Below, in pieces: positions 45,085 through 46,336 of a DNA stretch of 64,000 nt (its first letter is position 1; every line of letters begins with the position of its first letter). Source of the DNA: an uncultured Verrucomicrobiae bacterium. GTDB lineage: Bacteria; Chlamydiota; Chlamydiia; Chlamydiales; Rhabdochlamydiaceae. Both the position numbers and the translations under genes were made by a program. The stretch spans positions 160,001 through 224,000 of the forward strand of contig CAWFUG010000008.1 of assembly GCA_963818965.1 (NCBI GenBank), in the 5' to 3' direction. The notes beneath the pieces are model-generated. The model saw only the letters and a list, made by a program, of their open reading frames with translations, was not told the origin of the DNA and made no database searches.

Positions 45085-46336
45085 TCGTCCAGCGCAGCGC
45101 GCAGTCTTGAGTCCTCGAGACTGTGCGCAAAGCGATCTGCCAGTCGAACGCCTCAAATCCCACTCTCTTTTTTTGCTGCGGGCGGTTCGCACGAAGTAGA
45201 TGTCCGAAAAAACGCCCCTCTCCCTTTACCATTTCCACCTTCAAAGTGAAGAGAAGTCCCTGAGAGAAAATTTCCACATCTTGTCCTAGTTGAAACGTCG
45301 TTCCTTTTTCACCATTGATGAGAATCTGATGGTCGGGATGAAAATTTAGGTAAAAGGAAGATTCGATCGACTCCTCCCCTTCTGGGGGTACTTCTAGAGG
45401 AAGGGTCATTTCTATACCCCGCGCGCTTGAGGATGGTGCATTTGAGCGCGCGGGGTATAAATAATCCCCCTCAATAGACCACGCTGCCTTTCTCGCATCA
45501 AAAGAGAGAGAGTGGAGCTGTTCCTTATTTCCCCAAAAATGCAAGTAAGGTTTAGAAAAAGCGAGCGCTGGGACGGCTTTCTCTTCCCCCACACTCTGCT
45601 CATCGAAAGGCTGGACCAAAGCGCCCAGCAAATGGACCCGCTCTCTTAGAAGCGCGCGTCGAGAATATTCTGAGCCAAAATAGTGCCCCATGAATAAATC
45701 GAATAGAGTAGGAGCCGGCTCGCCCTCCTCTTGTACCGGTAGAAAAAACGGAGCCCCAAGGGGAGCGTGCCAATGGACCATTGCGGCTTCTAGCCAGTCT
45801 TTTCTCTCCACACCCTTCGATTTTGCCAGCTGGTAGGCGATTAACAGCTCGATACATTCTTCAGCAGAGTGGGGAACGCTACCGGGTGTGTTTTGGGGGT
45901 CGGTGTAGCTTTTGAGTTTGAAATGAGAGGGATCCGCCGACTGGACAATTCTCTCCATGACGCTACTGAGTCGAGAGGGCAATTCAGGGCCCAACACAGA
46001 GGAAAAATCAGCCACGATCCAGTGCAATAGCGGCAAGAGATCGATCCCTGTCGTACGACGACGGCACCGCGGGTAGTCATGGACATAGATGGGAAAGTTC
46101 CCCTCCACTTCGAAAGGAAGGAGCCTCTCCAATAACCCCTTCGCCTCCTGGATATTTTCTACCAGGCGGCTTCTCAAAAGAGCCAGTGCATAGCAGAAAT
46201 TCTCCAGAAGCGGAATCGTATCGTGCCTCTCCTCTTTGGCCTCATGACAAAAGTGGATGAAGCCCGTCTGAGGACTTTTGCGTTTTGCCGCTGCTAAGAG
46301 ATTGAGATCAAAAGGGCGTCGTTGTTTTAGATCCAT
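45044..46336 (-). CDS. Hypothetical protein carrying an in-frame family B insertion
   Basis: 430-aa ORF overlapping the HAD gene end; contains [15 protein letters not shown] encoded by the repeat. Confidence 0.75.
45413..45459. mobile_element. Family B mini element (Y-Y') inside a CDS
   Basis: TATACCCCGCGCGCTTGAGGATGGTGCATTTGAGCGCGCGGGGTATA. Confidence 0.85.

Follow-up and report, generated by a model that had tools for sequence, protein, structure and literature searches.

An in-frame TA-ended hairpin element in a conserved chlamydial gene and its family in environmental chlamydiae

The window, by which we mean the whole stretch of 64,000 nucleotides that was analysed and whose positions are used below, contains a gene for a conserved chlamydial protein of 430 aa that carries, within its reading frame, a 47-nt hairpin with TA at both ends. 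The gene overlaps the genes on either side of it, and the features of the locus were as follows.

44155..45084, + strand: enoyl-ACP reductase gene (fabI-like), convergent neighbour; 41-nt overlap with the 3' end of the host gene
45044..46336, - strand: host gene, encoding a conserved chlamydial protein of 430 aa that belongs to no family in Pfam or NCBIfam; an alpha/alpha toroid is predicted at its N-terminus and a beta-sandwich at its C-terminus
46327..47241, - strand: HAD-family hydrolase gene, upstream neighbour; 10-nt overlap with the start of the host gene
45413..45459, no strand: 47-nt TA-ended hairpin element with 15-nt arms and a 17-nt loop; internal-deletion derivative of a 167-nt subfamily
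45413..45414, no strand: TA, first target-duplication copy; the empty site retains a single TA
45458..45459, no strand: TA, second target-duplication copy; part of the Leu293 codon (45460-45458, coding strand)
45413..45457, - strand: 15 extra codons, residues 294-308; predicted flexible loop between two beta strands
45445..45450, - strand (coding-strand reading): 6-nt microhomology at the junction of the 120-nt deletion that relates the 167-nt form to the 47-mer

The host gene, its hairpin and the empty site

Homologues of the host protein numbered 135 at E <= 0.001 and were present in 24 of the 40 related genomes searched, and neither Pfam nor NCBIfam returned a family for it. An AlphaFold2 model built on 29 sequences has a mean pLDDT of 82.8. 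The predicted fold weakly resembles those of polysaccharide lyases (Foldseek E 1e-6, TM about 0.4) and of glycosidase toroids (Z 11.5, 234 residues, 3.8 A), and because these matches are weak the function of the protein was left without assignment.

An earlier note, made from the sequence of the window, had described a 47-nt palindrome inside ORF 45044..46336, and both its position and its TA ends were found as described. The 15-nt arms of the hairpin at 45413-45459 are perfectly complementary and enclose a loop of 17 nt, and folded as DNA the element reaches about -19 kcal/mol on both strands (z = -6.6), a value equalled by none of 200 shuffles. Eleven near-copies with no more than 4 mismatches were found in the 2.24-Mb genome, and the 15-nt end motif gave 75 matches at up to 1 mismatch, compared with 0 for the reversed control, so the 47-mer is not due to chance. 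Excision of the element with one TA kept removes 45 nt and yields a stop-free product of 415 aa in which EGDYL and EMTLP are joined in frame. The observation of an in-frame hairpin in this gene is confirmed. The peptides that the note expected to recur within proteins fared unequally among the 2,173 reading frames of at least 150 aa: YPAR lies mid-ORF in four, three of which carry the 47-mer, and YPSGLKS and LSPLGY in none. The proposal that the insert forms a loop agrees with the AlphaFold2 model, in which pLDDT falls below 50 at residues 293-301 between predicted strands at 285-289 and 304-311. The host protein is quite probably made with a neutral, flexible loop of 15 residues, and the single insertion is probably neutral.

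If the element is an insertion, orthologues should lack it, and P0001, the closest homologue (94% identical), lacks exactly 15 residues at this point. The span from W268 to N331 is 64 in the host protein and 49 in P0001, with a mode of 53 among the 114 of the 120 listed homologues that have both anchors. It is 56 or less in 110 of these 114, the other four having spans of 61, 63, 103 and 106. The typical homologue is therefore shorter by about 11 residues and not by 15, and this commonest shortfall, together with the four longer spans, indicates that the region varies naturally.

A duplicated TA had also been proposed, and this was borne out in metagenome DNA by one contig of run X1 that joins 45412 to 45458, so that the 45 nt are skipped and the ends read TA..TA; as evidence from DNA this is thin, consisting of a single contig of depth 2.2 whose short side measures 25 letters. 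As run X1 contains both near-identical and 90%-identical pieces, the carrier of the empty allele is a close relative. No joint of 45412 to 45458 was found in run X2, which barely covers the site. A metagenome scan for the DNA of the P0001 gene returned 2 distant loci, the lone genome of the same genus had no match to the host gene or to the element, and a full-length copy at the host-gene site was seen in none of the relatives. The protein (P0001) and DNA (X1 contig) observations of the empty site are independent and concordant. The orthologue gap, the TA duplication and the loop expected in the earlier note were all borne out, and its interpretation is supported. By these two observations the insertion is shown to duplicate TA, and the net gain is therefore the length of the element minus 2.

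Hairpins do cause polymerases to skip, and the empty-site join lies in one shallow contig, so that the join might have arisen in the X1 library, or the repeat might have been mis-assembled into the gene. Such an artefact is very improbable: P0001 has the same 15-residue gap independently, the 47-nt element is shorter than a read and lies within a 415-kb contig, and copies in other genes correspond to gaps of exactly the expected size against homologues.

The hairpin family and the origin of the 47-mer

Searches for the element were extended to the whole assembly of this genome (G000; 2.24 Mb, 87.85% complete). A total of 95 exact end pairs were found, with length peaks at 170 nt (21), 31 nt (11), 47 nt (10) and 167 nt (9), and looser search criteria yielded 58 hits of 164-174 nt, three of them then discarded because they were duplicates or noise. 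The complete family copies in the assembly number 136. The family consists of a near-perfect hairpin of 164-170 nt that starts and ends in TA; its arms vary with compensating changes, and its inner motifs are conserved. Besides the copy in the host gene, the window contains the following members and derivatives, none of them assigned a strand.

26853..26883: derivative of 31 nt, from a different subfamily
26941..27108: full-length hybrid of 168 nt that combines the left arm found in the 47-mer with the right arm of a different subfamily
47906..47935: 30-nt TA-ended hairpin with family ends
50176..50260: derivative of 85 nt whose arms are of the 47-mer's subfamily
51493..51660: full-length copy of 168 nt, from a different subfamily
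53848..53906: 59-nt derivative

The family has several features by which bacterial miniature inverted-repeat elements (MITEs) are recognised, namely a length of 47-170 nt, no encoded transposase, terminal inverted repeats and multiple dispersed copies, and also target-site duplication, for which the X1 contig (45-nt skip, TA..TA) and the 15-residue gap of P0001 stand, thin as the DNA evidence is. Open frames per element average 0.9 compared with 0.39 in mirrored shuffles. Since 23 of 50 copies have no open frame and the copies are not independent, general translatability is not claimed for the family. The AT-rich 170-nt subfamily mostly has stops.

Other repeats and duplications were recorded in the course of these searches. 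A second, AT-rich palindromic family lies in the window at 5321-5405, 17366-17409, 20725-20803, 26756-26939, 32439-32529 and 34977-35057; its 10-nt word has about 500 hits in the genome, and its copies frequently adjoin those of the TA-ended family, so that some 47-nt copies may travel with it. Further long palindromes were seen at 59266-59634 and 37515-37582, one being a perfect 33-nt arm pair with a 2-nt loop, and two tandem blocks about 2.5 kb apart at 32470-37345, with 76-99% identity over several hundred bases, probably represent a tandem gene duplication. Elsewhere in the assembly, G000:C4:10236-12633 is a 2.4-kb inverted duplication between element arms in which two small genes occur twice in mirror order, and either a duplication driven by a hairpin or an artefact of assembly may account for it. 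A near-identical 5.2-kb block with family ends on two contigs (G000:C4:1598-6843 and C12:108945-114186) may reflect duplication between repeats or bin contamination.

The 47-mer can be read directly out of a longer element. It equals the prefix plus the suffix of the 167-nt copy C9:179138, with 0 mismatches, after a deletion of 120 nt; C1:81148, a copy identical to the 47-mer, derives from C9:179138 with 0 mismatches and a 6-nt overlap, and the 47-mer of the window read on the + strand also gives 0 mismatches, with a 3-nt overlap. The 167-nt precursor is open in the frame of the host gene and shares its first four and last eleven residues with the 15-residue insert. The loops of the 11 near-identical 47-mers fall into four variants, three of which were also found in longer copies, and two further 47-nt classes have other deletion junctions. 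From the loop variants common to longer copies and from these differing junctions it follows that the short form arose more than once. Absent from the 47-mer are the inner motifs, which vary little or not at all among 26 aligned copies.

By this derivation, a full-length copy could first have added 55 residues in frame to the host protein, and slippage in replication across the hairpin at the 6-nt direct repeat could then have removed 120 nt, leaving 15 residues without the frame ever being broken. That such a route is possible is shown by the derivation, and as the course actually taken the two steps together are somewhat probable. The other course is that the 47-mer is itself mobile, having arisen a few times by deletion elsewhere and jumped straight into the host gene with its terminal arms sufficing. 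The 11 near-copies lie at different places and 6 of them share one loop variant, the three mid-gene copies agree in frame and orientation, and both ends are intact, as would be expected of a mobile short form. Yet it does not have the inner motifs conserved across genomes, its loop variants follow the full-length subfamilies, three copies share flanks with the second repeat family and may have spread with it, and the junction lies at microhomology, where slippage would recur. Direct movement of the short form is regarded as somewhat less probable than in-place shrinkage of a full-length copy. The 47-mer is likely to be the remnant of a non-autonomous, TA-targeting hairpin element of MITE type, recently inserted into the host gene and tolerated there because the frame is kept and the site of landing is a loop.

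Coding insertions and distribution among chlamydiae

Coding insertions are scarce in the family. Under a crude coding-site rule, which misses the validated copies C9:400402, RlmD and C8:394030 and includes the unvalidated C9:185554, C8:404325, C9:363390 and C10:15225, 14 of the 136 complete copies occupy coding sites, compared with 960 of 1,500 random TA sites (p = 7e-36). The frame is left open by 11 of these 14 and broken by 3, and the net length is a multiple of three in 12 of the 14, against 58 of 122 copies elsewhere (p = 0.009). Purifying selection is shown statistically: it removes most coding insertions and retains those that preserve the frame. Apparent frame-breaking full-length copies were noted at G000:C1:178232, C2:97350 and C11:411773.

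Several proteins besides the host protein carry an insert. In AroA about 55 extra residues were found (query 229->289 against homologue chain 216->221), and RlmD likewise has about 55 (query 214->266 against homologue chain 221->220). The inserts in an ABC-2 permease and in a family of 958-aa paralogues correspond to a 15-residue gap in all five orthologues and all five homologues shown, respectively, and a 603-aa family has about 11 extra residues in comparison with its homologues. At C8:394030 the gap is ragged: five homologues are shorter there, though the shortfall is not a clean 15. Each of the three 47-mers that lie mid-gene is read in the same one of five open frames, which suggests, with n = 3, a preference for a small polar linker.

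The host gene could instead be a decaying or untranslated one, its insertion being a sign of relaxed selection and not of tolerance. The C-terminus of the host protein differs from that of P0001 and overlaps fabI, three other coding-site copies break their frames, and the protein, whose expression is putative, has no assigned function. Nevertheless, the ORF is whole and 94% identical to P0001 on either side of the insert, and the protein holds every column that is invariant among 29 sequences. Its model is predicted to fold at the mean pLDDT of 82.8 given above, and its homologues persist in 24 of the 40 relatives. Among the differences listed, those at 45323 and 45341, at the depth of the X1 contig, are synonymous by reading. 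Decay of the gene is therefore an improbable account, and a tolerated insertion is the reading kept here.

The family is widespread in the phylum. A profile of its 55-residue peptide, searched in six frames, had matches in 49 of the 399 other genomes of the phylum that could be scored (one more gave no score), and these 49 represent at least 10 families; all 24 loci fetched from other genomes matched the DNA profile at E <= 4e-15. Among 26 aligned copies the hairpin arms vary and stay paired, with 58 of 72 pairs changing on both sides; paired cells amount to 93%, as against 32-47% in slid controls, and none of 500 shuffles was as high, in a test that used a structure drawn from the same 26-copy alignment. 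Hardly any variation was seen in the centre of the element, where one motif lies, or in the inner motifs some 40 nt in from either end. A motif scan of a collection of species genomes returned at least 115 stretches, and most of the 80 with titles come, going by title only, from environmental chlamydial assemblies, the others being titled Verrucomicrobia, Acidobacteriota, archaeon or just bacterium. Of 64 strict-end copies, 31 are 164 nt and 19 are 167 nt long, and by hand tally the commonest length is 164 or 167 nt in 16 of 23 titled assemblies, another length in 5 and mixed in 2. Such steps of three are suggestive only, because kin genomes are not independent. Bounded copies inside reading frames of at least 200 codons number 6 of 91.

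The family peptide was found within proteins of other assemblies (P0126, P0128, P0130 and P0140), and one of these, P0130, an MFS transporter, apparently has two family-like inserts, one short and one long. A FolC-like insert in G363 lies outside the aligned part of the homologue comparison. At L144:829-1231 (G032:C2) a full-length element is split by an unrelated palindromic insert of about 220 nt, beside the conserved right-hand motif. No match to the family was found among plasmids or viral contigs, and Rfam gave only generic hairpin matches, all under gathering scores.

Two protein regions were hit repeatedly. In G367, which belongs to another genus, the orthologous ABC-2 permease contains an in-frame full-length copy, placed in the loop that the 47-nt copy occupies in G000 and about 6 codons away from it. 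In G282, also from another genus, the hairpin found in the orthologue of the host gene is a different one: a multicopy, TA-ended element of 164 nt that lies in frame about 10 residues upstream of the 47-mer site and matched neither the family profile nor the RPE1 profile of the Rickettsia palindromic elements. This second 164-nt family was recorded in G282 at L279 (G282:C1:823504-824883), L280, L281 and L283, and as two adjacent copies in a 504-codon frame. Both double hits are consistent with tolerance of particular protein regions acting as a filter. On a wider and speculative view, environmental chlamydiae might carry an old, phylum-wide hairpin superfamily tuned in length by threes (164, 167 and 170 nt) and moved by an undescribed mobiliser, whose members would insert and then shrink by frame-safe slippage, a two-step route to new protein loops repeated at permissive sites.

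Possible mobiliser and known palindromic elements

Duplication of TA is typical of DDE enzymes of the IS630/Tc1-mariner group. By this analogy, it is about as probable as not that the family is moved in trans by a transposase that cuts at TA, the likeliest candidate being a DDE enzyme of this group; the enzyme would probably read the conserved inner motifs. IS630-type profiles (DDE_3 and HTH_Tnp_IS630) had no match in the 87.85% complete G000, and neither had the ISAzo13 profile, a blank that says little because its control matched nowhere. No transposase-like gene was seen by eye in the 7 listed stretches between unpaired family ends in G000, and no autonomous element with family ends was found in G000 or at 48 fetched loci of Y1 (tyrosine transposase) genes.

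The element could instead be moved as a single-stranded hairpin by an HUH enzyme (Y1, RAYT-like), as REP/REPIN sequences are, the terminal TA then being a cleavage signal and not the target duplication of a DDE enzyme. The whole element forms one hairpin with strong covariation throughout, beyond the need of terminal repeats alone, and tyrosine transposase genes with long flanking inverted repeats are described in PMC3733652. On the other hand, Y1 profiles had no match in G000, genomes that carry the element show no enrichment of Y1 genes (22 of 49 by hand count, as against 167 of 400 overall), and paired element halves flank none of the 48 Y1 loci fetched from among all Y1 matches. The family ends also do not bear the GTAG/CGTC tag, and the element of G032 sits within tnpB of an IS605-type element as an invader. 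A Y1 link in G032 was rejected, the element lying inside tnpB or nearby among many copies. Movement by an HUH enzyme is thus unlikely, and cutting at TA by a DDE transposase in trans is the working proposal.

The earlier note had likened the hairpin to the Rickettsia palindromic elements (RPE), for which we follow the passages on Ogata et al. 2000 in PMC10969869, PMC3733652 and PMC1779305. The analogy stands for behaviour and fails for family membership by profile (TIGR01045, NCBIfam). As far as these passages go, the two share a palindrome of about 150 nt, an obligate intracellular host, in-frame positions in unrelated protein genes, a recurring peptide, lineage-specific bursts and no known mobiliser. 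They differ in that the coding share of the chlamydial family is low (14 of 136 copies), the copy in the host gene is a 47-nt deletion derivative, and the family spans many chlamydial families. The RPE1 profile TIGR01045 matched none of 5 chlamydial genomes in six frames at E <= 0.1, in a search with no Rickettsia reported among its controls, and NCBIfam returned no family for 5 insert peptides.

The enterobacterial ERIC/IRU sequences (127 nt; PMC2759123) resemble the family in several respects. They end in TA and duplicate TA, their E. coli consensus has the seven letters at either end in common with the family, they form a stem-loop and can fuse open frames to genes, and no mobiliser is known for them. 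The chlamydial family differs in being longer (164-170 nt) and symmetric throughout. PMC2759123 reports no ERIC inside conserved domains, whereas the chlamydial family sits inside AroA and RlmD. Homology to ERIC beyond the ends was rejected, as nhmmer had no hit on 3 ERIC copies of E. coli K-12 and blastn had no match in an E. coli collection. One outlier, C1:121725, beat 300 of 300 end-preserving shuffles in global alignment to ERIC, as the best of 330 comparisons.

Palindromes in genes are also recorded for intragenic REPs and TIR repeats (PMC3733652) and for the Bordetella repeat BRE (PMC3184786). These too are short palindromes by which known proteins gain 20-30 internal residues, and BRE lies inside about 9 genes. 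The chlamydial ends differ from those of REP/REPIN in starting with TATAC, TAGTA, TAGTG or TACAC, without a GTAG/CGTC tag, and no link to a tyrosine transposase was found. YPAL/RU-2 of Yersinia (about 167 nt), as outlined in PMC2759123, has the same length, a palindromic form and an open frame of 56 codons; by eye its ends are different and it shares no motifs with the family. The Cardinium MITE, from what is given of it in PMC9769881, is unrelated to the chlamydial family, and the supplements of a MITE survey of 183,232 genomes (PMC11602168, main text) could hold the family. In the literature searched, with subscription journals and supplements outside its scope, no such element was described for chlamydiae; the string 'Chlamyd' is absent from the main text of PMC10969869, PMC11602168 and PMC3184786, and 'palindrom' is absent from PMC9723776.

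The insertion in the host gene is real, recent and in frame, and the inserted DNA is a short derivative belonging to a chlamydial hairpin family that is apparently undescribed. The phenomenon is of an established kind, as in-frame palindromic inserts occur in Rickettsia and a few other bacteria; beyond what the earlier note could see, the 47-mer derives by deletion from a family of 164-170 nt that environmental chlamydiae widely share and that reaches at least 49 other chlamydial genomes. Inserts of this sort split profile matches in housekeeping genes (aroA, rlmD) and can mislead annotation. How in-frame palindromes move, and how proteins come to tolerate them, are questions on which the host-gene site bears, with filled and empty alleles occurring in close relatives. 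Together with the exact derivation of the short form from the long one and the independent hits on the same protein regions, these alleles make target duplication, collapse and tolerance directly testable.
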